Origin: Deltaproteobacteria bacterium
Lineage (GTDB): Bacteria; Myxococcota; Kuafuiibacteriia; Kuafuiibacteriales; Kuafuiibacteriaceae
Direction of reading: 5' to 3'
Assembly: GCA_040218735.1 (NCBI GenBank)
Contig: JAVJQW010000051.1
Coordinates: 1 to 12,293 of the forward strand
Length of the DNA: 12,293 nucleotides
The position numbers and the translations under genes are program-made. The notes beneath the pieces were generated by a model. It made no database searches, was not told the origin of the DNA, and saw nothing but the letters and a program-made list of their open reading frames with translations. Positions 1 through 12,293 of this stretch are shown here, in pieces; the first letter of the stretch is position 1, and every line of letters begins with the position of its first letter.

Positions 1-1017
1 CAGCCGGTCACGGCCTGGCCGGAAGTACAGCCTCAGGTACTCGCCGCTCAGGTCGTAGACGATCGCACGCTCGCCGCGCGCACGAATCTGATCGAGCAGG
101 TCCTTGCAGGCCGTCGACTTCCCCGAGCCCGGCGAGCCGCAGAGGAGCACGTGGTAGCACTCCTTGCCGGCCTCGAGCTCCACCCCGGCGAGGCGGTAGC
201 CGCCCTCGCCTCCTCCCCCGAAGCGCACGCGCCACTGACGGCGCGCCAGCGCGATCCCGACCGCGGCCCACGCCGCGATGAACACGTAGCCCGCCACGAG
301 GTGGAGCACAGAGCGTCCACCGAACCGCGCACGCTGCGTGACGACCGCGGCCTCGCCGCTTCGAAACGCCCCATCGATCCAGAGCACGTCCGGCGACCAC
401 TCCGGCGCGAGCAGGCCCCGCACCGCGGGGGCCGCGACGAACGCCTCGGCCTTCGCGTAGACCGCGAGCTCCGCCGGCGGGGCGTCGAAGACGACGGAGG
501 CGAGCGGCGCCGCGAGCGCCACACTCGCCAGTCCATGCAGGGCACGCCCTCGGCGACGGCGCTCGCGCTCGTGCGCCGCGTGGTCGCGAAGGATCGCGCC
601 GCGCCGCTGCCGCGCCCCGAAGATCGCTTCGCGGTACGCGCGCAACGCGAGCCACAACAGCAGAGCCGCGACCGTGGAGATCAGGGCCGCGCGCGCGAGC
701 CACTGACGGAAGAGAAAGACGATCGAGCGACGGCCGAACACCTCGAAGTAGCGGCGCTGGATCTGCTCCGCCGTGACGTCGACGTTCGACAAACTGCGCG
801 CGAGCTCGGCGGGAACTTCGTCGAAGACCGAGGCCACGAAGTAGGCCGAGAGGTCGCCCGCGTCCGCCCCCTCGGGGAGCGTTGCGAGGAGCGAAGCGAA
901 GCCGAGCGCCAGCCCGACGACGACACAGAGTGCGACCGCGAAGCCGAGCGCCCTCGCCCACTGCCGGTACTGATGCGCGGCGAAGTCACCGGCCTCGGCG
1001 TAGCCCGGACGTCGCAT
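1..1017 (-). CDS. traD: Type IV coupling protein (TrwB/TraD family), 5' part; runs off the left edge
   Basis: Manual translation from ATG at 1017 is open for 339 codons to the edge (MRRPGYAEAGDFAAHQ...). N-terminal hydrophobic segments are followed by ECYHVLLCGSPGSGKSTACKDLLDQIRARGERAIVYDLSGEYLRLYFRPGRD, i.e. Walker A (115-138) plus the RG.RAIVYD..GEY signature of TrwB/TraD. Starts 3 nt after the stop of the upstream RHH gene. Confidence 0.92.
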   Translation of the reverse strand, partial: MRRPGYAEAGDFAAHQYRQWARALGFAVALCVVVGLALGFASLLATLPEGADAGDLSAYFVASVFDEVPAELARSLSNVDVTAEQIQRRYFEVFGRRSIVFLFRQWLARAALISTVAALLLWLALRAYREAIFGARQRRGAILRDHAAHERERRRRGRALHGLASVALAAPLASVVFDAPPAELAVYAKAEAFVAAPAVRGLLAPEWSPDVLWIDGAFRSGEAAVVTQRARFGGRSVLHLVAGYVFIAAWAAVGIALARRQWRVRFGGGGEGGYRLAGVELEAGKECYHVLLCGSPGSGKSTACKDLLDQIRARGERAIVYDLSGEYLRLYFRPGRDRL

Positions 1018-1020
1018 GAC

Positions 1021-1338
1021 CTACGCCTCGGCTCCACGCGCGGGTCGCGCGTCTTCCTCGCCGTCCTCGTCAGAATCCTCGAGGTAGGCCCACGCGCGCC
1101 GCATGACTTCGTCCACCCGTGCGGCGGGAATCTTGTGGAGCTCGGCCTGGAAATGCTGGAGCTGAATGAGCCGGGCACGGACGTCCATGAGGTGCTCGGT
1201 GAGGTCGCGGAGCGACAGCTGTCGTTCGAGGATCGAAGCCGCGACAGTACGCGCCGGGAGGCGCTCGTCCGCGGCCCGGTCCTCGATCTCGGCCCACGTC
1301 TTCGACTCGATGCGCAGCGTGATCTTCTTCTTCGCCAT
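1021..1338 (-). CDS. Ribbon-helix-helix protein, probable TrwA-like relaxosome accessory factor (105 aa)
   Basis: MAKKKITLRIESKTWAEIEDRAADERLPARTVAASILERQL shows an alternating beta strand followed by two helices, with an acidic C-terminal tail. GGAGG lies upstream of ATG 1338. Position between the putative oriT and the coupling protein matches R388 oriT-trwA-trwB. Confidence 0.75.
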   Translation of the reverse strand: MAKKKITLRIESKTWAEIEDRAADERLPARTVAASILERQLSLRDLTEHLMDVRARLIQLQHFQAELHKIPAARVDEVMRRAWAYLEDSDEDGEEDARPARGAEA

Positions 1339-1438
1339 CGAACAAACCCCTCCCATCCGCTCGGCGCGAGCGGGCGGTGATGCGGGCAGCCCAGCCGCCC
1401 GTTATGACTCATGAAAAGGCACGGTCGAAGCCGCGCCG

Positions 1439-1458
1439 AGCGGCTCTAACGAGCCGCT
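1439..1458. promoter_or_regulatory. Perfect 8-bp inverted repeat in the oriT/trwA-like upstream region
   Basis: AGCGGCTC-TAAC-GAGCCGCT. The repeat is seen directly; its function is unknown. Confidence 0.45.
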
Positions 1459-1534
1459 ACTGTCGTCGACTTGCTAACGCGGTCGCCCGACACACAAACA
1501 TCCGATATCACTCCGGATATCAGCAAACACGACC

Positions 1535-1563
1535 GCAAACGGAGGTTGCATAGTGTGTGATGG
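1535..1563 (+). other. Candidate oriT nic region (MOBF-like), predicted nick at 1558/1559
   Basis: GCAAAC-GGA-GGTTGC is an imperfect inverted repeat running into TTGCATAGTGTGT^GATGG, close to the F/R100-type nic sequence as I recall it (TTGCGTAGTGTGT^GGTG). Non-coding, upstream of RHH-T4CP, and oriented so the MOB genes would transfer last. Confidence 0.65.
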
Positions 1564-1576
1564 TATTCTCAGGGGT

Positions 1577-1593
1577 CTGGGGCGGAGCCCCAG
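1577..1593. other. GC-rich hairpin immediately 3' of the putative nic
   Basis: CTGGGGC-GGA-GCCCCAG, a perfect 7-bp stem with a GGA loop. Confidence 0.55.
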
Positions 1594-1598
1594 TCTGC

Positions 1599-1767
1599 GG
1601 GCCGCGCGGCCCATCTCCCCAAACCCGACGGATCTCGCGACAGCGATCCGACTATGGGCCGCGCGGCCCATCTCCCCAAACCCGACGGATCTCGCGACAG
1701 CGATCCGACTATGGGCCGCGCGGCCCATCCCCCCAAACCCGACGGATCTCGCGACAGCGATCCGACT
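1599..1767. repeat. 57-bp tandem repeat x3 with internal palindrome; candidate parS/sopC-like centromere
   Basis: Units start at 1599, 1656 and 1713 and are almost identical. The perfect palindrome ATGGGCCGCGCGGCCCAT lies at 1654-1671 and 1711-1728, with a 14-bp core at 1599-1612. The array ends 7 nt from the parB stop. Confidence 0.9.
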
Positions 1768-1774
1768 CATCGAA

Positions 1775-2713
1775 CTAGTCCTCCCCGTCAGCCGTCTTCG
1801 CCTCGCGGCGTTCAGCGGCGCGCTTGAGACGGCGGAGTTCCCGCAGAGCAGAGCGAAGGCTCTCCACCGCCTCCTCTGCCTCGGCGGCAGTCGCCGATGC
1901 CTTAAGACGAAGCGCAGGAAGTCGGAAGTTGCCCTTGGCATCAACGAACCCGTCGGTCGTCGGCGCGCTCTTCGCGGCGGCGGTGGGTCCTGCGACGAGC
2001 GCAGCGAGCTGGCGCCGGAACGACCCGAGCGACAAGGGCGGGTCCGCAAGCAGTAGCTCGAAGAGTTGCGTCTGGAGCTCGAGGGGCGCGTCCCAGCCCT
2101 TGAGCTGCTGGAACGCTTCCGCTGCCCGCAGGGGGAAACGAGGGTTCTGTGCTGCCGCCGCGAACGCCGAAGAGCGCTCGGCGCAGGCGTTTAGTGCATC
2201 CAGCCGGAAGATCGTTCGGCGGTTGAGGCCAGTCAGTGCTTCAATCGTTGTTCGCGACCAGCCCCGGTCGAGCGATGCCTTAACCTGACGAGCCTGGTCA
2301 TAGAGTGTGAGGTCGTTCCTGCGGAAGTTCTCAACAAACGCCAGCTGTCGGGCCTGATCGAGGGTGATATTGCGGTAGATGCGCGCGAAAGCGTCGCGCT
2401 TGCCGCAGATCTCAGTGTTCAGAGCACGTACGCGTGAGTGACCCCAGATCGTGTAGTAGAAGGTCTCGGCGCCATCCTGCCGCTGCTCCCAAAGTCCGAT
2501 CGGCTCTAGTTGGTCGTGTTTCGCGATCGACTCAGCCAGTTCGTCGATGTCGTGGTACGTGGAGCGCTGCTCAAGGTCGGCGTGGGTACGGATCCGACTC
2601 AGCGGAACCCAAGCTGCACCTCTAACGGCATCGGAATCGGAAGCCAACGTCTTCGCGACAACGTCTAGTTCCGCTGATGGCTTACGGGGAGGCTGAAAGG
2701 TCAAGTCAGTCAT
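1775..2713 (-). CDS. parB: ParB/RepB/Spo0J family partition protein (312 aa)
   Basis: IDELAESIAKHDQLEPIGL, IWGHSRVRAL (GxxRxxA), ENFRRNDLTLYDQA and HTH GWSRTTIEALTGLNRRTIFRL. Start placed at ATG 2713, overlapping the parA 3' end; the ORF-track start at 2875 lies deep inside parA. Confidence 0.92.
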   Translation of the reverse strand: MTDLTFQPPRKPSAELDVVAKTLASDSDAVRGAAWVPLSRIRTHADLEQRSTYHDIDELAESIAKHDQLEPIGLWEQRQDGAETFYYTIWGHSRVRALNTEICGKRDAFARIYRNITLDQARQLAFVENFRRNDLTLYDQARQVKASLDRGWSRTTIEALTGLNRRTIFRLDALNACAERSSAFAAAAQNPRFPLRAAEAFQQLKGWDAPLELQTQLFELLLADPPLSLGSFRRQLAALVAGPTAAAKSAPTTDGFVDAKGNFRLPALRLKASATAAEAEEAVESLRSALRELRRLKRAAERREAKTADGED

Positions 2714-3485
2714 GGTGTCTATCCAGTTCTGCCGCAAGGCTGGTGTAGTCCTCAGCGCCACGTGAGCGAGGTGCGAAACGAAGGATATCCTGCGCGGAGC
2801 CGGCTGCGCGCACGAGTTCGGCGTTGGTGCGGATGATGGTCTCGCAGCGTGCGAGCTCGATATCCTGTTGTGCAAGGAAGGACGTCTTCAGGGCGTGGTC
2901 CAGGCTTTCGGACGTCGAATCGTGTAACGAGGTGCGACGATCGTACTGGGTCAGAAGCACGAAGGCGCGGGGAGGCTTCGGGCGCGTCTCGGCGACGGAC
3001 GAGAGGCGGCTTAGCGTGCGAACGAAGCTGTGCGCACCGAAGTACTCGGGTTGCATCGGGATGAGCACGAGATCGGCGAGAAACAGCGTGCTCGTGGTAA
3101 GGAAACCAATGGACGGACGAGTGTCGAAGACGACCCGGTCGTAGCCAGACGGAACCACCTTGTGTTGAAACAGATGGCTCGCTGCGGGATCCGTCACGAG
3201 GGAGTACTCAAGCGGGTCGAGGTCGATTGTCGCAGGCAGGAGGTCAAGATTCTCGCGGACGGAAGCGTGAATTACGCTCTCGGCCGTCGCTTGGCGCTGC
3301 AGAACGCTGGCCAGGGAGCCTGAGAGTTCGTCCGGGTTGAGCCCCAGGTGCAGGGTTGCATTCGCCTGGGGGTCAGCATCGACCAGCAGAGTCTTGTGGC
3401 CGCGGTCCGCTAGCGCCGCAGCCAGATTGACTGCGGTCGTTGTCTTGCCGACGCCGCCCTTGAGGTTGGTAACGGTAATGATCAC
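2706..3485 (-). CDS. parA: ParA/Soj family Walker-type ATPase (259 aa)
   Basis: Deviant Walker A KGGVGKTT, LLVDADPQANAT, YDRVVFDTRPS and C-terminal PRSRGAEDYTSLAAEL. No N-terminal HTH. The GTG start overlaps the rep stop (GTGA). Confidence 0.97.
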   Translation of the reverse strand: MIITVTNLKGGVGKTTTAVNLAAALADRGHKTLLVDADPQANATLHLGLNPDELSGSLASVLQRQATAESVIHASVRENLDLLPATIDLDPLEYSLVTDPAASHLFQHKVVPSGYDRVVFDTRPSIGFLTTSTLFLADLVLIPMQPEYFGAHSFVRTLSRLSSVAETRPKPPRAFVLLTQYDRRTSLHDSTSESLDHALKTSFLAQQDIELARCETIIRTNAELVRAAGSAQDILRFAPRSRGAEDYTSLAAELDRHHD

Positions 3486-5026
3486 TTGGCGCTCTCCAGA
3501 ACGTCGAATCCGTGAAAGTCGCTGAGTCGCGTGCGAAGGGCTGCGACATCAGGCGAACCGTGGAAGTCTTCTCGTGGCATGGCCCCTAGCGTTTCGAGGC
3601 GAAGTTCGTGGACAAGACCGGTGATCATGTTGTCGCGAATGGTTGGGTACGCCAGGCGTCCGGCTGGCAGGTCTTGGTCGGCGCGTACTGTGGCTCGGTC
3701 GAGCAAAGCGCCTTCATCGAGCGGAGTGCGCCTGGCGAGCGCGTCGACGTAGCGAGGCCATAGGGCTTCGACTTCTGCGCGGTCGCGATCGCGATCGCGA
3801 TCGCCTTGGCGACGGCTCCGCTCCGCGACCGCCGCGTCGAGGTAACGCCCTACCCCCTTGAGCCAGAGAATCTGTTCGCCCGACTGCGTTCGTCTGTGCA
3901 GGTCGGCTGCGATGACGATTAGCTCCAAGAGTTCTGCGAGCGGGTACTTCTTGAGCCATTCCCGCGCGGTGCTCAAGTCTGCATCGCGCGGCGGGGGCGG
4001 TTCCGCGGTAGCCGGCAATCCGTGGAACTGCCGTTGGAAGCGAACGACGACATCGTTCGCGGGACCTGAGGGCCGGACCGACCTTCCCTTCCCCCTCTCC
4101 GGCTCGTTGATGACGAGTTCGTTTGTTTGAGCTGCGATTCGCCGAAACGTAAAGCGGAAGTCCTTGGGCCGTCGGTCGACCTCGAGTCGAACCGCAACCC
4201 CCAGGCCGTTCAGTCGGGAGAGCGAATCTGCCACGCGGTCAAGGGCGTAGGCGGATGCGCTACGCCCACCCATCTCGAGCCGGCGCGACTGCAGAAGCAG
4301 TTTGTAGCGCGCGAAGTTCTGGCAGCTGGCAACGACCTGTTCGTCCTTCCGCGCGAGTTGGCGGTCGAGCCAACGATACAGAGTCAAGTCGAGGGGCTTC
4401 TCGATCGCAAGCCAGGTTCGAATGTCCAGCGGCTTTGTATACTGGGCCCGAACGGAGTCATAGATGAAGGAGCCCCAACGAATCTTGAAGGGAGTTCCGA
4501 GGCGAAGCTCCGGTCGCACCTCAATCAGCTGATCGAAGAGAGCGGCGTTGACCTTGATGTGGCGCCCAGCTGCGCGATCGTACCAGCGGTCGTGGTGAAT
4601 GCGAGTGGCGGCGATTCGATAGAGCTCGCGGTGGATCGCTGCGAGAGTACGACCGTTCGGGGCGTACTGGCGGTGCGGGTACATGAACCGCGTGAGCTGC
4701 GACAGTTTGAAGTGGACGTGCGGATCCTCGAAACCGTTCTCCTCGCGAGTCATCCAGAGGAGGGCGAGAACAACTCGCTGCGCGATGGCTGTGGGGAGCG
4801 AATCGCCAGACGTCGCGAGATAGCACGTTCCGTCAGGGGAAAGGTCCGCCGTGCGTCGATTAGGAGTCGTTCGAGGGAGAGTGAAGGGGATCTCAACGAG
4901 GTTGAGTTCGTCGTAAGCGATCCGGTCGACGCGATCGAGCTCGAAGAGTGTTGGCTGCTGCTCGCGCACGTCCATAGACATTCCGCCGAGAGGCTTACGT
5001 AATCCTGTATTTCGGTCAATAGTCAC
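3482..5026 (-). CDS. repA: Plasmid replication initiator protein (RepA, probably 'replication initiator protein A' type)
   Basis: Motifs DELNLVEIPF, LPTAIAQRVVLALL, FKLSQL...NGRTLAAIHRELYRI and YTKPLDIRTWLAIEKPLDLTLYRWLD resemble winged-helix plasmid initiators. Adjacent to iterons and coupled to parAB. Start uncertain (GTG 5026 or the downstream MSMD). Confidence 0.8.
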   Translation of the reverse strand: MTIDRNTGLRKPLGGMSMDVREQQPTLFELDRVDRIAYDELNLVEIPFTLPRTTPNRRTADLSPDGTCYLATSGDSLPTAIAQRVVLALLWMTREENGFEDPHVHFKLSQLTRFMYPHRQYAPNGRTLAAIHRELYRIAATRIHHDRWYDRAAGRHIKVNAALFDQLIEVRPELRLGTPFKIRWGSFIYDSVRAQYTKPLDIRTWLAIEKPLDLTLYRWLDRQLARKDEQVVASCQNFARYKLLLQSRRLEMGGRSASAYALDRVADSLSRLNGLGVAVRLEVDRRPKDFRFTFRRIAAQTNELVINEPERGKGRSVRPSGPANDVVVRFQRQFHGLPATAEPPPPRDADLSTAREWLKKYPLAELLELIVIAADLHRRTQSGEQILWLKGVGRYLDAAVAERSRRQGDRDRDRDRAEVEALWPRYVDALARRTPLDEGALLDRATVRADQDLPAGRLAYPTIRDNMITGLVHELRLETLGAMPREDFHGSPDVAALRTRLSDFHGFDVLESAK

Positions 5027-5096
5027 TCACGGTTCCCCGTGTCGTGAGCTTAAGCATGACGCGTGCCAACGAAACTGGGCGGTGGTGGGGCCTGTG

Positions 5097-5129
5097 TTTA
5101 GATCATTTAGATCATTTAGATCATTTAGA
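5097..5129. repeat. AT-rich 9-bp tandem repeat (TTTAGATCA x3 + TTTAGA), probable DNA-unwinding element of oriV
   Basis: Read directly from the sequence. Lies between the iterons and the rep start; each full unit contains GATC. Confidence 0.8.
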
Positions 5130-5171
5130 GGCGGAAAAGCTAAGTATTCCTAGTGGGTTACAGGGTGATTT

Positions 5172-5296
5172 TGTCTACTAGGGTGCGTGGATTTGTTCAC
5201 TGACGTGCGTGGATCTGTCTACTGGGGTGCGCGGATTTGTTCACTGACGTGCGTGAAGTTGTACATTGACGTGCGTGGTGTTCACTGACGTGCGCG
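5172..5296. repeat. Six 18-bp iterons (oriV)
   Basis: TGTCTACTAGGGTGCGTG 5172, TGTTCACTGACGTGCGTG 5194, TGTCTACTGGGGTGCGCG 5216, TGTTCACTGACGTGCGTG 5238, TGTACATTGACGTGCGTG 5260, TGTTCACTGACGTGCGCG 5279. Spacing 22, 22, 22, 22, 19 bp. Confidence 0.9.
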
Positions 5297-5365
5297 AAGG
5301 GCGCTCGTCGAGAGCGCTCGGACGTGCAGTGATCTCGGGATGATGAAGGCTACTAGGAGAGCCTG

Positions 5366-5605
5366 TCAGGGCGCTTCGTCGCCTTGGGGGGGGCGTGTGC
5401 GGAGAGCCGCGGTAGCCAGCGTCCAGAAGCGCTCAATCTCTTGGGGCGTGTGGTGGCCGGACTGGGTGAGGTCGACCATGATGAAGTACTCGAGGCGGGC
5501 ACGCATCGACACGCGCTGAGAGGCGCAGAGGGTCTTGAAAGCGTGAAGCAGCTCGTTATCGAGTTGGAATGTGACGTTCCTGAGGTCCTGCGTCTCCTCG
5601 GACAT
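5366..5605 (-). CDS. Small ribbon-helix-helix DNA-binding protein, ParG/CopG-like (79 aa)
   Basis: MSEETQDLRNVTFQLDNELLHAFKTLCASQRVSMRARLEYFI matches the ParG-type RHH pattern. Co-oriented with and upstream of rep-parAB. Confidence 0.75.
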   Translation of the reverse strand: MSEETQDLRNVTFQLDNELLHAFKTLCASQRVSMRARLEYFIMVDLTQSGHHTPQEIERFWTLATAALRTRPPQGDEAP

Positions 5606-5706
5606 GCTTGGCCGCGGAGGTTGCCACAAGCCCCGGAAAACAGGAAATCAATAAGCGGGAGCTTGAATGACGACCCTTAAATATGTAAACAAGTACCAAG
5701 CGAAAG

Positions 5707-5729
5707 CTAACCACCAAATTGGCGGTTAG
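5707..5729. promoter_or_regulatory. Inverted repeat, candidate operator
   Basis: CTAACCACCAA-A-TTGGCGGTTAG, 11-bp arms with one mismatch, in the divergent intergenic region. Confidence 0.5.
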
Positions 5730-5754
5730 ACAAACTACCCTGACCTCAAGCAGA

Positions 5755-5806
5755 GCGTCGAAATGCGTCAATTCGCGTCGTGACGCGTATTGACGCGAGT
5801 TGACGT
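5755..5806. promoter_or_regulatory. Phased inverted-repeat array, candidate RHH operator
   Basis: GCGTC at 5755, 5765, 5775 and TGACG at 5781, 5791, 5801 (10-bp period). Core arms 5765-5779 and 5782-5796 pair at 14 of 15 positions. Confidence 0.6.
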
Positions 5807-5997
5807 CGTATTCGGCAAGTAATCGGGGCCAGAAAGTACGCGATGTTCGTTTCATCGCGTCGGCACAGGATGTGCTCTAGCAGCGACCGTTCGTCACGAG
5901 CGTGGTGACGTCATCCTGCCCTTCGGGGGCGTGGATGTCCAGGGACCGCGCGTAACCGCCTCTGCCGGTCTGCGGCGGAGGGCAAGGAAACGAGTCA

Positions 5998-6300
5998 ATG
6001 CTGAAACGGATTCGCCATCCGCAGGGATGGGTGCGCCTAGTTGTGTTCTGCGCGGTCTTCGCCTTCACGGAGGCCGTCTATGCCCAAAGCGGCTTTCTGC
6101 GCGACATCGAGAGCAAGGCCACGCAGCTCGTCGACGGCGTCTTGGCCGTGGCGAAGGTGGTGCTCATCGCGGCGCTGATCTTCTTCGGTGTGCAGGTCGC
6201 GCGCGGGGACCGCGAGGCGTGGGGCCGGGCGATCGCGGTGTTCGTGGGCATCTTGGTGGTGTTCCAGGCCAAGAACATCATCGCCTGGATCGGCTCCTGA
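5998..6300 (+). CDS. virB2: VirB2/TrbC-family pilin
   Basis: 100 aa with a signal peptide ending AVYA|Q and two hydrophobic helices separated by RGDREAWGR. AAGGA upstream. First gene of the T4SS operon. Confidence 0.85.
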   Translation: MLKRIRHPQGWVRLVVFCAVFAFTEAVYAQSGFLRDIESKATQLVDGVLAVAKVVLIAALIFFGVQVARGDREAWGRAIAVFVGILVVFQAKNIIAWIGS

Positions 6301-6310
6301 GGTCGCGGCG

Positions 6311-6634
6311 ATGCGAAACCGCGTCTACCGGTCGATCGAGGGGCGCAGCCGAGGCCTTCTGGGTTTCGGCGCGCAGGAAGCCGCCTGTGCGGCGCTGACG
6401 GGCGTTCTCGGATTCTGGGTCCTGGGCCCGGCGTTCGGGCTCGCGTCCGCTGTGGGGGCGCTGGGGGGCCTTCTCGCGTGGCGGCGTTCGGACGGCGACC
6501 GAAGCGACTACGTGCAGGCCGCTCGGCGGCGCTGGCTCCAAGGCCGCCGGGTCTACCGGCTCGTCGAAGCCGACGCCGCGGCCTGCGTGCCGGCGATGGC
6601 GCCGAGCTCGCGGACGGGGAGGGGGCAGGGATGA
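6311..6634 (+). CDS. VirB3/TraL-like inner membrane protein (107 aa)
   Basis: MRNRVYRSIEGRSRGLLGF followed by two hydrophobic segments and a basic tail. Directly follows the pilin, with GAGGT upstream of ATG 6311. Confidence 0.7.
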   Translation: MRNRVYRSIEGRSRGLLGFGAQEAACAALTGVLGFWVLGPAFGLASAVGALGGLLAWRRSDGDRSDYVQAARRRWLQGRRVYRLVEADAAACVPAMAPSSRTGRGQG

Positions 6635-7428
6635 TTCGCAAGTTCGGCCTGGTGGCGGCGGCGGAAGCGCTGCCGAAAGAGATTCCTCCGTTTCCTGTGC
6701 CCGACACCGAGTACGTCCGGCTCAGCGTCGGTCGTCGCTGCTTGAAGCCGCAGGAGATCGTCATCGACTGGCGGCTGTTCGAGACGATGCTGTCGCTCAG
6801 CGCCGGCGTGGTCTGGGTGATCGAAGGCCCCAAGTCGCGTGCGGAATTCGATCAGTGCCGGTTGCTGACGGTGTCCGTCGGACCGAAGGGCGACGAAGGC
6901 GGCAGCTGGGACGCTCGGCCGTTGCCGCGGTTTCCGAGCGCGCGGTCGAAGCTGGGCGAAGTCGTCGGTCGAATCTGGCGGCATGCGTTCAAGACGTACG
7001 CGGTCGGTGCGAACACGGGTCACGTGGACGGCTTCGAAGGGATCGAGCAGCGCGTGCTTCAGCGCGTGCGCCCTCGGACGTGGGGGGCGTTGTGGGAAGC
7101 GCTCTGTGTCGATGGGGAAGGGCATCGCATCCGGGCGCCGCAGTACGAGGCGCAACGGCTGTTGCTCCCGTTTTTGGTGGGCCTGACGGGGGCGATCACC
7201 GAGCGTCGCTCGGCGCGGTTTCGGCTGACGGACGGCCACGAATGGGAGCTGCCGCACGCGCAGTACGAGACGCTGCGCTACGCGCTCGAGCTGTTGTGCC
7301 CGATGGGCCTCGGCCCGAACACGCTCACCTTCGAAGGCGTCGAGCGGGCCCATCTCGACCGCTACGCGCCGACCGACGGCGGCGCGTGGCCCTCGCGCAT
7401 CTTCGTGAAGCGGGGGTGGTTCCGATGA
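6631..7428 (+). CDS. Hypothetical cytoplasmic protein A (265 aa), paralog of the next gene; possible degenerate VirB4-like domain
   Basis: ATGA overlaps at both ends, plausible globular composition (MIRKFGLVAAAEALPKE...), and shared sequence blocks with 7425..8189. Confidence 0.8.
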   Translation: MIRKFGLVAAAEALPKEIPPFPVPDTEYVRLSVGRRCLKPQEIVIDWRLFETMLSLSAGVVWVIEGPKSRAEFDQCRLLTVSVGPKGDEGGSWDARPLPRFPSARSKLGEVVGRIWRHAFKTYAVGANTGHVDGFEGIEQRVLQRVRPRTWGALWEALCVDGEGHRIRAPQYEAQRLLLPFLVGLTGAITERRSARFRLTDGHEWELPHAQYETLRYALELLCPMGLGPNTLTFEGVERAHLDRYAPTDGGAWPSRIFVKRGWFR

Positions 7429-8189
7429 TCGCCAGCCAGCACGGGACATCGTCGGTGTGGTTCGAGCGGGATGCGGAGCCCGACGAGGTCCTCGAGCGGG
7501 ACCTCGTCGAGCTGTCGTCCGCGGGGCGTCTTCAGGCGTGCGGTGAGATGGCGCTGCGTACAAAGCTCGCGCGACACGCCGGCTGCTTCTGGAAGATCGA
7601 TAGCTGGCGGACGCCGGTGATGCCGCTGCCGACCACGCTCGCGCAGCGGGTCGACATCAGGCCGCAGCAGCCGGACATCGTCGCGGAGAGCTGCGCGCAC
7701 GGCATGCCGGAGCCCACGTCGGCGGTGGGGCAGGTGGTGGGCCGGATGTGGCGTTGCGCGTTGCGCGCGTACGTCGTCGAGGGCGCGCCGCCGTGGCAGC
7801 TCGATGCGTTCGAGTCTCTGCTGGCGAGCTTCGCGTTCGCGCACGCGGCGTCGTCGTGGGGTGAGCTCGAGCGCAGCGTCCGCGCGCACTACGCGCACGA
7901 GCACGGGCTGTCGATGCGTGAGGCGAGCGCGCTCGATGCGTGCGTGCCCTTCTTGCGCGAGCTGACGGACGTCGTCGTGCAGCGTGGCTCGGCGCACATC
8001 GTGTTCGAGGGCTTCGACGATCCGAAGCTCCGAATGGCGGGCGTGCATGCACTCTGTCTCGCGCTGGAGTGGCTCCCTCGTATAGCGCTCGCGCCGGAAA
8101 CGGTGCTGCTCGAAGGGTGGGGCCCCGGCACGCCCCGAATCGACTGGCCACGCTCGGTGTCGTTCACGAGCGTGCGGAGGCTTTCGTGA
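7425..8189 (+). CDS. Hypothetical cytoplasmic protein B (254 aa), paralog of the previous gene
   Basis: ATG 7425 overlaps the previous stop (MIASQHGTSSVWFERD...); its own stop overlaps the virB4 start (TGATG). Confidence 0.8.
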   Translation: MIASQHGTSSVWFERDAEPDEVLERDLVELSSAGRLQACGEMALRTKLARHAGCFWKIDSWRTPVMPLPTTLAQRVDIRPQQPDIVAESCAHGMPEPTSAVGQVVGRMWRCALRAYVVEGAPPWQLDAFESLLASFAFAHAASSWGELERSVRAHYAHEHGLSMREASALDACVPFLRELTDVVVQRGSAHIVFEGFDDPKLRMAGVHALCLALEWLPRIALAPETVLLEGWGPGTPRIDWPRSVSFTSVRRLS

Positions 8190-10666
8190 TGGTCGCCGCG
8201 AAGTTGTTCGCGGCGCCGTCGCTGCTGCCGCTGTGGGACGTGCTCGACACCGGCGACATCGTCACGTCGCGCGGTCAGCTGCTCCGCGCGTACGCGCTCA
8301 CGGGTCTCGACTCGGAGCATCGTCCCGCCGCCGAGCTCGAAGCCGCGGCGGCGCAGCTGTACGCCGGTCACGGCGAGCTCGCGGACGGCGCGTTCTTGCA
8401 GTTCGTGGTCGAGGGGCACGACCGCTACGACGACGTGTTCGCCGCGTTCGATGCGGTGCCGCCGCCGGACGACCGCGTGCTGCGGCTTCAGCGCAAACGC
8501 CGCGTGGACTTCCTGCGGTCGAGTGGCCTTCGCCGCTTCGACACCACGCTCGTCGTCGGTCACGTCGAAGGCTTCACGCGCAGCGCGTTTCGACAGCTGT
8601 CGGAGCGCGAGGTCGAGGCGCGCCGCCACGCATCGCGCGAGGTTGGCCGTAGCGTGGTGGGCCTGCTCGAGCGCGCCGGCGTGCGCGCGCGTCTGCTCGG
8701 ACGCGAAGCGATCCTGCGGTCGCTGCATCGCGGCCTGAATCCGTCGCGTGACTTCGCGTGGGCGTGCGATCAGAGCGTCTTCGACGACGACGGCCGCATC
8801 CGTTGGCTGTCGTGCCGCGAGCGCCTCTTCGAGTCGGCGATCGAGGGCGACGTCGACCACGTCCGCTGCGGCGCGCGCTTTCATAAGGTGCTCGTCTTGC
8901 GCGGACTTCCGGACGCCACGCGGTTCACGTTGCCCGAGGCGCTCCTTCACCTGCCGGTCGCGTTTCGCGCGAGCGTCAATTTCATCGTGCCCGACCAGGC
9001 GCGGGCGGGGGCGGTGTTCGAGCAGCATCGTCGTCTCGCGCACGGCGCGACCGGTCGCGACAAGTACGTCGAGGACGCCGGCCGGGCAGGGCGGGTCCGT
9101 GAAGCGAACGCGCTCGCCGAGCTGCTCGCCGAGACGGGACAGAAGCTCGTGCAGGTGGGGATGCAGCTCGTCGTCAGCGGCGAGTCGCCCGAGCTCGTCC
9201 GCGACGAAGCCGAGCAGGCGATCGAGCATCTCAAGCGCTACGGGCTGACCTTCATCGAAGAGACGGCCCGCCACGACGTGGAGCTGCCGAAGACGCTGCC
9301 GGGCATGGCCGTCGCCTTCGACCGGCACAAGCTCGTCACGTCGAACAACGCCTTCGACTTGATGCCCGTCTTCGGCGGTCGGCACGGCGATCGCGATCCG
9401 GTCCTCCTCGTGAAGACGGCTCGCGAGGAGCTGTTCAGCTTCAACCCGGTCGAGCGCGCCCGTGACAACTGGAACGCGACCGTCTTCGGTGCGAGCGGCT
9501 CCGGCAAGAGCGTCACGATGAACATGCTCATCGCGACGGCGATGCTCGCGAACGTGACCCGCGGCCGCGTCATGGTCGTGGACTTCGCGGGCGAGACGAA
9601 GAGCTCGTACCTGCAGGTCGCGCGGCTGTTCGGGGGGCAGTTCGTTCCGGTCGTGAGCCGCGAAGCGGGCGTGGCGATCAATCCGTTCCCGCCGCCGGCA
9701 GTGGCCCTCGACGAAGCGGGGGCGCTCAAGAGCGAGCACCTCAACTTCCTCCTGGTCCTCACGGACCTGCTCCTCACGAACACCGGCGACGACATGGACG
9801 CGGCGCTGCACCGGCAGCTGCTGCAACGCGCGCTGCAGCGCTGCTACGAGGGGCGCACCACGCGCGACGGCGCGCCGACGTACGTCGACATGGCGAAGGT
9901 GCTCGAGGCGATGCGCGGTGCCTCGGACGTCGACCGGGATCGCCTCGAACGCATCCGCAGCCTGCTCGCCGGCTTCCTCGAGAGCCCGGACTCCCGGTTC
10001 TTCACGAAGCCTTCGAACGTCGTCGCCGATGCCTCGTTCGTGATCTTCGACCTCTTCGGCATCGACGGCCTCGCGCCGCAGACGCGCGAAGCGCTGGTCT
10101 TCTTGGTGACCGAATACGTGAAGCGGGTCGCGTTCGGAGAGGAGGGCATCAGGTACGTCGTCCTCGACGAGGTGGCGCAGCTCCTTCGGCGCCCCGAGAT
10201 GCGGCGGCTCGTCGACGAGCTGTACGCGACGGCGCGAAAGCACCGCACCTCGGTGTGGACCGTGACGCAGAACTACGGCTCGTACGTCGAAAGCGGCCTA
10301 CACGAGGTTGTGAAGCTCAACTCGACCACGCAGCTGTTCCTCAGCCACGCGAACGCCGCCGACGTCCGTGGCCGCGTGGCCGACGACTTCGACTTCAACG
10401 AACGCGAGCGGGTCCTGTTCGAACGGCTCGTCACGAAGAAGGGCGACTACTCCGAGGCGTTGATTCGCACCCAGTGCGTCAACGAGCTCGGCGACAAGGA
10501 GCCCGTCACGGCGCGCCTGAGGATCGAGCTGAGTCCCTTCGACTACCAGCTCGCAACGAGCGACGCCGCGGACCGCGAGCGACAGAAGAAGTGGATCGAA
10601 CAGAACCCGACCGCGCCCCTCGCGGCGGTCCTCGATGCGCTGGCGAGAAAGTGGGCGTCCGAATGA
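8189..10666 (+). CDS. virB4: VirB4/TraC-family T4SS ATPase (825 aa)
   Basis: Walker A NATVFGASGSGKS, VMVVD, INPF, Walker B YVVLDEV and ARKHRTSVWTVTQ. GGAGG at 8176-8180 supports ATG 8189 (or GTG 8186). Confidence 0.95.
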   Translation: MVAAKLFAAPSLLPLWDVLDTGDIVTSRGQLLRAYALTGLDSEHRPAAELEAAAAQLYAGHGELADGAFLQFVVEGHDRYDDVFAAFDAVPPPDDRVLRLQRKRRVDFLRSSGLRRFDTTLVVGHVEGFTRSAFRQLSEREVEARRHASREVGRSVVGLLERAGVRARLLGREAILRSLHRGLNPSRDFAWACDQSVFDDDGRIRWLSCRERLFESAIEGDVDHVRCGARFHKVLVLRGLPDATRFTLPEALLHLPVAFRASVNFIVPDQARAGAVFEQHRRLAHGATGRDKYVEDAGRAGRVREANALAELLAETGQKLVQVGMQLVVSGESPELVRDEAEQAIEHLKRYGLTFIEETARHDVELPKTLPGMAVAFDRHKLVTSNNAFDLMPVFGGRHGDRDPVLLVKTAREELFSFNPVERARDNWNATVFGASGSGKSVTMNMLIATAMLANVTRGRVMVVDFAGETKSSYLQVARLFGGQFVPVVSREAGVAINPFPPPAVALDEAGALKSEHLNFLLVLTDLLLTNTGDDMDAALHRQLLQRALQRCYEGRTTRDGAPTYVDMAKVLEAMRGASDVDRDRLERIRSLLAGFLESPDSRFFTKPSNVVADASFVIFDLFGIDGLAPQTREALVFLVTEYVKRVAFGEEGIRYVVLDEVAQLLRRPEMRRLVDELYATARKHRTSVWTVTQNYGSYVESGLHEVVKLNSTTQLFLSHANAADVRGRVADDFDFNERERVLFERLVTKKGDYSEALIRTQCVNELGDKEPVTARLRIELSPFDYQLATSDAADRERQKKWIEQNPTAPLAAVLDALARKWASE

Positions 10667-11643
10667 CTCGCCTTGACGAAGCGGCCTGCGTCTCGACGGT
10701 GCAGCGCACCGGCGAAGGGCAGAGCGGCACGGCGCATGGACAGACTCGCCGCACGAGCCAACCGATCCGACTCATCGGGGGAGCGATCCTTGCCGTGACC
10801 CTCGCGATCCCTCGGCCGGCCTACGCGCTGTTCGGGGAGGAGGATTGGATCTCCGGCCAGAACCAGACGCTCATGGCGTTGCTCTGGGAGGAGCTCGAGC
10901 ACACCACCCAGCTATCCACCCTGATCGCCAACGCGAAGTTCATGGTGGGCTCGGTCAACGAGCTGCTCGCGCTGGCGCGCACCGCGCGGCGCGTCTTCGA
11001 GGCGATCAAGAACTACGACCTCAAGACGCTCGAACGCGACGTCCTCCAGAGCCTTTACCGCGCGATCCCGGAGAGTCAGGAGCTCGCCCAAGAGATCGAC
11101 ACGCTCTACCGCGACGGCCGCGCGATCCACGAGGGCAAGTTCTGGACGCGCATCGGCGCCAAGGACGCGAAGGTCTCGTACCAGGCGAGGAAGCTCTGGG
11201 AGCACGGCTACAAAGCCACGCTGTGGCCGCTCGTCCTGCCGGGCGAGGGCCACCTGCGCCGCGGACCGAGCATCGTCGAGGCGAAGGTCGCGACGCGCTA
11301 CCAGGTGAGCGGTGACGAGGCGCGCCGCGCCTTCGAGCAGAGCGCGATCGCGATCCTCGCCGGCAAGGTGCAGGCGTTCGCGGCGGACGCGGAGCTCAAG
11401 GACCGCGTCGACCTCAAGCGCGAGGCGACCCGCGCGCAGCTCGAGCTTCAGCGCACCGCGGATGCCGCCGAGCTTCGTCGACTTCGCGAGCAGGCCGTCG
11501 CCGAGGACCAAAACGAGCGCGAGGCGCTCGAGTCCTTCCAGCGCCAGATGTCCGGCGGCCTTCGCGCCGGCGCCGAAGACCTCGTCGGTCCGCCTCGCTG
11601 GGCGGACCGCAAGCCCACGAGGAGGTCGGCATGGATCTGGTGA
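10663..11643 (+). CDS. Exported helical T4SS protein, VirB5/TrbJ-like by position
   Basis: ATGA overlap with virB4, signal-like LIGGAILAVTLAIPRPAYA|LF, coiled-coil-like body, located between virB4 and a VirB6-like gene. Start uncertain. Confidence 0.6.
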   Translation: MTRLDEAACVSTVQRTGEGQSGTAHGQTRRTSQPIRLIGGAILAVTLAIPRPAYALFGEEDWISGQNQTLMALLWEELEHTTQLSTLIANAKFMVGSVNELLALARTARRVFEAIKNYDLKTLERDVLQSLYRAIPESQELAQEIDTLYRDGRAIHEGKFWTRIGAKDAKVSYQARKLWEHGYKATLWPLVLPGEGHLRRGPSIVEAKVATRYQVSGDEARRAFEQSAIAILAGKVQAFAADAELKDRVDLKREATRAQLELQRTADAAELRRLREQAVAEDQNEREALESFQRQMSGGLRAGAEDLVGPPRWADRKPTRRSAWIW

Positions 11644-12293
11644 AGATCGACACCTCGATGCTCACGCCGTTCTTGGCGATGGGGCGCGCGATCTTGGGGC
11701 TCGCGTTCGCGCTGTGGATCTTGCGCGAGACGTTCGAGCTGGCGACCAAGGGCCGCTGCGACTTCGCGCGGCCGTTGATCCGGGTCGCGTTCGCCTACGC
11801 GCTCCTGTCGGCCCTGCCGACGATCGGTGCGTGGGCGGCGAGTGCCGCCGCCGAAGGCGGGACGACGATGTTCGCAGCGAACGAGTCGCGTCTGTTCGTC
11901 GCCGCCTACGAACACGCTGTACAAAACCAGATCGGTCCCGCCGCGGAGCCTGGGTCGACGATGGAGATCCTTGGCGCGGTCTCCAGCCTCTTCACGGTCC
12001 GCGGCCTCGTGAATCAGCTGTCGATGATCGTGTACCTCGGCATGCAGGCCAGCAAGCTGGTCGTGCTGCATGTCCTGTGGCCGGTCTGCCTGAGCCTTGT
12101 GGTCGTCGGCGGCACGATCGCCGTCCCGCTCGGCGCCATTCCGGGGAGCAAGGGCATCGAGGGGTGGATCAAGAACCTCGTCGAGGTGTCGCTGTGGCCG
12201 CTCGTCTTCAACGTGATCTTGTCGCTGATGGTCGCCTCGCTCGCGGGGCTCCTGCGGCAGGTGCAGACGATCGACTTTGCGACCCTCTTCGAT
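11631..12293 (+). CDS. VirB6/TrbL-like polytopic membrane protein, truncated at the right edge
   Basis: Not in the ORF track. GGAGG at 11621-11625 and ATG 11631, open for 221 codons (MDLVKIDTSMLTPFLAMGRAILGLAFALWIL...GTIAVPLGAIPGSKGIEGWIKNLVEVSLWPLVF). The late G.ia.pl..iP...gW segment is typical of VirB6-like proteins. Confidence 0.8.
   Translation, partial: MDLVKIDTSMLTPFLAMGRAILGLAFALWILRETFELATKGRCDFARPLIRVAFAYALLSALPTIGAWAASAAAEGGTTMFAANESRLFVAAYEHAVQNQIGPAAEPGSTMEILGAVSSLFTVRGLVNQLSMIVYLGMQASKLVVLHVLWPVCLSLVVVGGTIAVPLGAIPGSKGIEGWIKNLVEVSLWPLVFNVILSLMVASLAGLLRQVQTIDFATLFD

Follow-up and report, generated by a model that had tools for sequence, protein, structure and literature searches.

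Why should two genes for presumably soluble proteins lie between the genes of a VirB3-like protein and the VirB4 ATPase, which type IV secretion systems (T4SSs) normally keep together? The question is raised by contig JAVJQW010000051.1 of a Deltaproteobacteria bacterium (assembly GCA_040218735.1; Myxococcota, Kuafuiibacteriaceae in GTDB), of which positions 1 to 12,293 were analysed as a whole and are called the window here. The two genes, named A and B, stand inside a transfer operon of the window. We tentatively propose that A and B are genuine tandem-duplicated orphan genes inserted at the junction of the VirB3-like gene and virB4, and that their products may act as a soluble cytoplasmic accessory heteromer of the T4SS that aids assembly or recruitment; this reading is possible rather than probable.

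Gene A (6631..7428, plus strand) encodes an orphan protein of 265 residues with an isoelectric point (pI) of 9.3, and gene B (7425..8189, plus strand) encodes its paralog of 254 residues with a pI of 5.9. These coordinates and frames had been given in an earlier note on this DNA, and they were found to be correct when the translations were checked. The three overlapping junctions described there are also present. At 6631, the stop codon of the upstream VirB3-like gene (107 residues) overlaps the start of A in the sequence ATGA; A and B overlap in a second ATGA at 7425; and in TGATG at 8187-8191 the stop of B and the start of the VirB4 gene (8189) have one base in common. The junction of the VirB4 gene with the next gene, which encodes 326 residues, is likewise an ATGA (10663), and purine-rich stretches precede the starts of the coupled genes. 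Because the overlaps are found on both sides of the pair, A and B should be made together with the VirB3-like protein and VirB4.

A and B are genuine coding genes, judging from codon-position G+C, a phase switch, codon usage, and the full-length conservation of B in two lineages. The G+C contents at codon positions 1, 2, and 3 are 0.68/0.50/0.85 in A and 0.69/0.52/0.88 in B, as compared with 0.72/0.44/0.90 in VirB4. The third-position value (GC3) of the long antisense open reading frames (ORFs) is 0.68-0.75, and for all antisense and out-of-frame ORFs of the region it lies at 0.53-0.75. The phase of peak G+C changes exactly at 6631, 7425, and 8189. The correlation of synonymous codon usage with that of VirB4 is 0.90 for A, 0.89 for B, and 0.70 for the antisense ORF.

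Neither protein possesses a segment of transmembrane grade, as the earlier note had stated. The maximum Kyte-Doolittle mean over 19 residues is 1.28 in A and 1.33 in B, and no window exceeds 1.6. The N terminus of A, MIRKFGLVAAAEA, shows a short basic-then-hydrophobic stretch in which the hydrophobic run is only 7 residues long. The N termini of B and its orthologs are polar.

The relationship between A and B is clear in their C-terminal regions. BLASTP aligns the two proteins with 42/138 identities (30%, E 9e-14), and their Smith-Waterman score is 135, whereas shuffled B gives 33.8 ± 5.2 (z 19.4) and none of 2000 shuffles reaches the score. The earlier note had proposed tandem paralogs, and the proposal passes this test; all eight sequence blocks that it quoted are found, collinear, in the translations and in the alignment. 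The significant paralogous part spans residues 101-236 of A and 94-231 of B (~138 residues). The N-terminal ~100 residues alone are collinear but not significantly similar (score 34 versus 25.1 ± 4.4, reached by 99 of 2000 shuffles). Across A, B, and the two orthologs of B (P0003 and P0004, described below), 44 columns are invariant, including a G-x-x-V-x-R-x-W-R helix start, D-x-F-E, P-F-L-x-x-L-T, and E-G. No recognised catalytic motif is found among the columns invariant in all four proteins.

The distances among these proteins should be noted, since they bear on the age of the duplication. Global identities are 28% for A/B, 27% for A/P0003, and 27% for A/P0004, but 70% for B/P0003 and 55% for B/P0004. 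The equidistance of A from the three B-type proteins fits a duplication older than the split of the B-type proteins. The old duplication suggested in the earlier note is therefore plausible on account of this equidistance (27-28%), though its age is not readable from 30% identity and no A ortholog was found. The absence of an A-type ortholog may mean either that the A-type gene has been lost elsewhere or is unsampled, or that A has diverged very fast.

The upstream gene (6311..6634, plus strand) had been called virB3 in the earlier note. Its 107-residue product (pI 11.4) matches no VirB3 or TraL model (Pfam at E ≤ 1, NCBIfam at E ≤ 0.1), and in this respect the name finds no backing. We retain the term VirB3-like because of its size, its hydrophobic hairpin (about residues 24-56, with hydropathy windows above 1.6 beginning at residues 24-38), its position after the pilin gene, and the fusion of a similar segment to VirB4 in the relative P0015. 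According to the portions of PMC6536674 used here, VirB3 proteins are small, have one or two transmembrane helices within about residues 15-57, are encoded between the pilin gene and virB4, and are sometimes fused to VirB4. The gene in the window corresponds to this description, being small, carrying a hairpin, lying between the pilin gene and virB4, and having a fused counterpart in a relative. The cytoplasmic tail of the VirB3-like protein is unusually basic, the pI of 11.4 being that of the whole protein.

The downstream gene (8189..10666, plus strand, GC3 0.90) encodes a VirB4/TraC-type T4SS ATPase of 825 residues. PF11130 (TraC_F_IV) matches residues 63-360 (E 1e-10) and PF19044 matches residues 425-501 (E 9.4e-10), both above the Pfam cut-offs. 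The matches to TIGR02746 (E 4.6e-50, 170 bits) and TIGR00929 (E 9.6e-34, 117 bits) are both under the curated cut-offs of NCBIfam. The protein thus has both an N-terminal TraC/VirB4 domain and a P-loop ATPase domain, and its GASGSGKS motif is unchanged in all of 25 relatives.

The premise of the earlier note, that virB3 and virB4 are normally adjacent or fused, agrees with the literature in the parts that we drew on, which describe the synteny as highly conserved (PMC6536674) and fusions as frequent (PMC6536674, PMC3158045). In the R388 machine, as far as the portion of PMC9259494 used here describes it, VirB3 wraps the N-terminal domain of VirB4, and a protomer consists of 1 VirB3, 2 VirB4, and 3 VirB8 tails. 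In the window, the VirB3-like and VirB4 genes are set apart by 1.56 kb encoding A and B.

Relatives of the window VirB4 give the closest comparison. At E ≤ 1e-20, 30 relatives with 23-100% identity were obtained, and 25 of the 30 were aligned; P0011, P0029, P0033, P0034, and P0035 were left out as short. In P0015 (930 residues), the segment 11-82 shares 47% identity with residues 2-74 of the VirB3-like protein (E 1e-6), including a common AWRRSDGDRSDY stretch, and residues 117-919 are 51% identical to VirB4. The two parts are joined by only ~35 residues, which leaves no room for A or B. A fusion-type N-terminal extension is present in 1 of the 25 aligned relatives, namely P0015. Together with the plasmid pYRE, in which small genes directly precede the VirB4 gene, P0015 bears out the statement that A and B are inserted where relatives keep a VirB3-like part next to or fused with VirB4. 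Relatives with a contiguous or fused arrangement thus indicate that A and B are an insertion into a normally unbroken pair.

A maximum-likelihood tree of VirB4 (28 sequences), built by a quick search rather than a careful one, places the window protein with P0007 (SH-aLRT 100) and P0008-P0011 as their sister group (support 99). In the same tree P0015 groups with P0021 in a separate clade (support 100). Since P0021, the closest relative of P0015, is unfused, the P0015 fusion may be recent or may be an artefact of gene calling. No A or B homolog was found for the P0008-P0011 or P0015/P0021 clades by the exhaustive profile search described below, which is weak evidence of absence given the rate at which B evolves. 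A contig scan with very degenerate patterns derived from the VirB4 alignment (25 sequences) matched 598 stretches, of which one was confirmed, an unrelated Muribaculaceae locus with 22% identity. In the open-access library that was searched, we found nothing describing such genes between virB3 and virB4, nor in T4SSs of Myxococcota or myxobacterial plasmids.

We searched for relatives of A and B in two ways, by a word-indexed search of 5.8 billion clusters and, separately, by a profile of four sequences (A, B, P0003, and P0004) run exhaustively on 1.84 billion representatives. In the former, A matched only itself among 1710 candidates, and B matched itself and two orthologs among 1165 candidates. 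Both orthologs align over the full length, P0003 with 71% identity to B and P0004 with 56%; one source labels P0003 as a hypothetical protein of a 'Deltaproteobacteria bacterium' metagenome-assembled genome. Besides a single spurious protein, the exhaustive profile retrieved nothing but A and the B cluster, so that no fused, split, or distant forms of A or B lie within the reach of HMMER. P0005 (E 6.7e-5) was rejected as a family member; it is an internally repetitive protein of 369 residues that matches only 27 profile positions. By these comparisons of sequence, A and B form a new, very small protein family. With A and B as queries, tblastn gave no match to PLSDB plasmids or to phages, and a megablast search of the whole window against plasmids was likewise empty.

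One pair of records bears on whether B accompanies the same T4SS elsewhere. The ortholog P0004 and the VirB4 relative P0007, which is 86% identical to the window VirB4, both report a largest contig of 16,768 bases. This coincidence is consistent with P0004 and P0007 lying on one contig, and thus with a linkage of B to the same T4SS there. If the two are co-located, B keeps 55% identity where VirB4 keeps 85%, and the divergence of B would be about three times as fast as that of VirB4. At such a rate, orthologs farther away could escape detection.

The earlier note had described A and B as unknown genes, and the searches leave this description intact, with no match in Pfam, NCBIfam, PHROGs, PADLOC, PDB, or fold searches. 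Pfam gives no family at E ≤ 10 for A, B, P0003, or P0004, NCBIfam gives no match to A or B at E ≤ 0.1, and PHROGs gives none. An assignment to TraE/VirB8, which the note had named as a possible objection, is likewise not found, judging from these Pfam and NCBIfam results and from the lack of an N-terminal transmembrane helix. PADLOC yields 0 families for the same four proteins, and no toxin-antitoxin or defence membership was detected; a paralogous pair of equal size is also untypical of toxin-antitoxin or defence pairs. In a search of the A/B profile against PDB sequences, the one match has an E value of 0.74. An hhalign comparison of the A/B profile with the VirB4 profile gives a probability of 0.1, and thus no detectable sign that A and B derive from VirB4.

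Structure prediction adds a secondary-structure outline. AlphaFold2 models based on the four-sequence alignment have a mean predicted local distance difference test (pLDDT) score of 47.4 for A and 55.7 for B. Both models show a mainly helical core that falls on the paralogous region; the core of B covers residues 95-230, with blocks at pLDDT 62-86. Foldseek at E ≤ 0.001 gives 0 PDB matches for the A and B models, NTF2-like folds included, and 0 BFVD matches for B, all with models of low pLDDT. In the ESM Atlas, the best feature score is 0.90 for B, to an unnamed cluster, nothing usable is obtained for A, and all structural template modelling scores are below 0.4.

The surrounding operon runs on the plus strand from 5998 to the end of the window in the order pilin, VirB3-like protein, A, B, VirB4/TraC, the 326-residue protein, and a polytopic protein. 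The first gene (5998..6300) encodes a TrbC/VirB2-type pilin of 100 residues (PF04956, E 1.8e-13, 50.9 bits versus a cut-off of 27.9). The product of the 326-residue gene (10663..11643, GC3 0.90) matches no family and carries a hydrophobic segment at its N terminus; the position of the gene suggests a VirB5/TrbJ-like protein. The last gene (11631..12293, GC3 0.91) runs off the window and encodes a polytopic membrane protein with 30 hydropathy windows above 1.6 and no Pfam match, which may be VirB6/TrbL-like, again from its position.

This arrangement resembles the VirB/Trb operons, which are of mating pair formation type T (MPF-T)-like organisation (for example, R388 trw and RP4 trb), in its order of pilin, small hairpin protein, VirB4, exported protein, and polytopic protein. 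A nearby coupling-protein gene and translational coupling are also common to both. Unlike those operons, the window has two soluble paralogous genes splitting the VirB3-like/VirB4 pair, its VirB4 scores below the NCBIfam cut-offs, and, while the pilin passes the Pfam cut-off, the other parts have no family model. In the F-type operons (traA-traL-traE-traK-traB-...-traC), several genes sit between traL, the VirB3 homologue, and traC, the VirB4 homologue, and the window VirB4 scores best with F-type TraC models. The intervening F-type genes encode envelope proteins with transmembrane segments or signal sequences, among them VirB8-, VirB9-, and VirB10-like proteins. A and B differ from them in having no segment of transmembrane grade and no match to their families. 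The P0015 fusion has the same VirB3-like segment and VirB4 subfamily as the window, the two being one polypeptide there and separate genes here.

A further comparison is offered by the plasmid pYRE of Myxococcus stipitatus (NZ_CP102771.1). No other PLSDB record gave a VirB4 match, and this one shows 29% identity in an alignment that covers 53% of the query. It encodes ParA/ParB and a coupling-type protein, and has genes of 96 and 102 residues directly before the VirB4 gene. No ORF like A or B occurs in any frame of its 17.3-kb locus, and its 102-residue protein has no detectable similarity to the window VirB3-like protein. The plasmid is typed as non-mobilizable by PLSDB/MOB-suite, yet its positions 2541-9389 encode a coupling-type protein with a TraM recognition domain and a VirB4-like ATPase. 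The T4SS branch to which pYRE and the window belong seems to escape standard typing.

Operon position suggests that A and B may be dedicated cytoplasmic T4SS components, as the earlier note put it. They would be accessory subunits confined to this T4SS lineage, and the following course of events can be envisaged. An ancestral orphan gene would have entered a very divergent plasmid T4SS at the point where the VirB3-like gene meets virB4, and its tandem duplication would have given A and B. Start-stop coupling would ensure that the two proteins are made in step with the VirB3-like protein and VirB4. A being basic (pI 9.3) and B acidic (pI 5.9), the two would then most likely join as a hetero-oligomer in the cytoplasm. 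This oligomer would dock where the inner-membrane complex faces the cytoplasm, by way of the N-terminal domain of VirB4, the basic tail of the VirB3-like protein, or both. The docked oligomer might help assembly, or might recruit the pilin or the substrate. The fast divergence of A and B suits adaptor-like proteins on the periphery of the machine better than core catalytic subunits.

Several observations weigh against this proposal. No ortholog of A was found, and the family as a whole is narrowly spread. The apparent threefold faster divergence of B relative to VirB4 would be equally in keeping with conflict or cargo genes. The cytoplasmic location of A and B is a prediction from hydropathy alone, and the poor, matchless structure models provide no fold-based support for a function. 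Since related T4SSs evidently work without A and B, the pair does not belong to the core. We consider it distinctly unlikely that A and B represent a new class of soluble T4SS subunit, as a heteromer physically between VirB3 and VirB4 that remodels the cytoplasmic face in one myxobacterial-type plasmid clade. As such a heteromer, they might, for instance, choose the substrate or stand in for cytoplasmic VirB4 partners that are missing or go unrecognised.

The strongest competing explanation treats A and B as passenger or conflict genes merely co-expressed from the transfer operon, with functions such as fertility inhibition, exclusion, anti-defence, or regulation. Transfer operons often carry small lineage-specific genes, for instance entry-exclusion genes, and the very narrow distribution with A as a singleton, as well as the much faster evolution of B than of VirB4, fits this explanation as well as it fits the accessory heteromer. 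The relatives without the pair and the lack of similarity of A and B to any T4SS family also point toward passengers. However, A and B overlap core genes by 1-4 bases on both sides and interrupt the gene pair that is best conserved in the system, whereas cargo genes usually occupy the leading region or the margins of an operon. Their GC3 and codon usage are indistinguishable from those of their T4SS neighbours, which argues against a recent foreign arrival, and neither PADLOC, PHROGs, nor Pfam gives a match to defence, anti-defence, or DNA binding. As for an exclusion-type function, known exclusion proteins are membrane proteins or lipoproteins, unlike A and B with no membrane-grade segment. 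Taken as a whole, the passenger explanation appears rather unlikely.

Still less credence is given to the idea that A and/or B are envelope components that have diverged beyond recognition, functionally analogous to subunits of the VirB8/TraE type. This improbable reading draws on the preference of the window VirB4 for F-type TraC models (170 bits with TIGR02746 versus 117 bits with TIGR00929, besides PF11130), on the F-like separation of traL from traC by several genes, on the size of A and B, which is about that of VirB8, and on the short basic-then-hydrophobic N terminus of A. It conflicts with the absence of a transmembrane-grade segment from both proteins, the polar N termini of B and its orthologs, the absence of any Pfam match at E ≤ 10 for the four family members, the lack of a PDB fold match (with weak models), and the mainly helical core that is predicted. 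The remaining gene order is also VirB/Trb-like and not F-like. That the A and B ORFs are non-functional, as chance frames in DNA of 70% G+C or as decaying duplicates, is very unlikely and scarcely to be believed. High-GC DNA is certainly rich in spurious ORFs (79 of at least 50 residues in the 12.3-kb window, including one of 784 residues antisense to VirB4), A has no ortholog, and both the language-model and AlphaFold2 models are of low confidence. Nevertheless, the codon-position G+C and codon usage of A and B are like those of real genes and unlike those of antisense or out-of-frame ORFs, B is kept at full length with 55-71% identity in two other lineages, the 44 invariant columns extend over A, B, and the B orthologs, and both frames are intact with coupled starts.

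The G+C content of the window ranges over 56-73%, and the part beyond the operon carries a plasmid backbone. A coupling-protein gene of the VirD4/TrwB type (1..1017, minus strand, GC3 0.88) runs off the window, leaving its 5' part with the N-terminal 339 residues (PF10412, TrwB_AAD_bind, E 9.4e-17). By its coupling-protein gene, the element bears the mark of a T4SS that serves conjugation and not secretion alone. On the minus strand there follow genes for a ParB-like protein (1775..2875; TIGR00180, E 3.5e-10), ParA (2706..3485; PF13614, E 4e-42), and a weakly RepA-like protein (3482..5026; PF10134, E 1.2e-5, below the cut-off). The upstream side of the RepA-like gene adjoins 3.7 copies of the 9-bp unit TTTAGATCA (5097-5129) and about six copies of 22-bp iteron-like repeats (5165-5300), and the region of these repeats (5097-5300) is a candidate replication origin. 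With iterons, RepA, ParAB, and a coupling-protein gene, the element is plasmid-like in its predicted gene content, and the T4SS that it carries is, as far as such evidence tells, very divergent, plasmid-borne, and of the conjugative type. Its high-GC host is probably an organism of the myxobacterial type.

Some smaller features of the backbone are also observed. Directly downstream of the ParB-like gene, a 57-bp unit is repeated in three near-perfect tandem copies (1599-1767, 99% matches), which is a candidate partition (centromere-like) site; a plus-strand 'ORF' at 1553..2056 is merely these repeats in translation. Upstream of the coupling-protein gene, an ORF of 111 residues (1021-1356, minus strand) has a weak ribbon-helix-helix match (PF13467, E 0.03, below the cut-off) and could encode a relaxosome accessory protein or a regulator. 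Between the iterons and the pilin gene lies a divergent ORF of 87 residues (5366-5629, minus strand, GC3 0.80) with no family match, and an inverted repeat of 24 nucleotides (79% complementary) is found upstream of the transfer operon at 5756-5805; the two could be a regulator and its operator. GC3 is 0.70-0.73 in the replication and partition genes (1775-5026) versus 0.84-0.91 in the transfer genes (5998-12293). This gap suggests that the replication and transfer modules may differ in history, and the plasmid may be a mosaic.

VirB3 and VirB4 are encoded by the most tightly linked T4SS gene pair and are in contact in the solved R388 machine, according to the part of PMC9259494 used here. If A and B were mere cargo, the locus would be a routine case of lineage-specific orphan ORFs in a transfer operon. 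Standard typing fails to recognise the T4SS branch, whose one relative in PLSDB is labelled non-mobilizable, and the plasmid biology of such high-GC organisms is barely explored. Two soluble proteins translationally locked between a VirB3-like protein and VirB4 constitute a natural experiment in how the ATPase platform gains parts.

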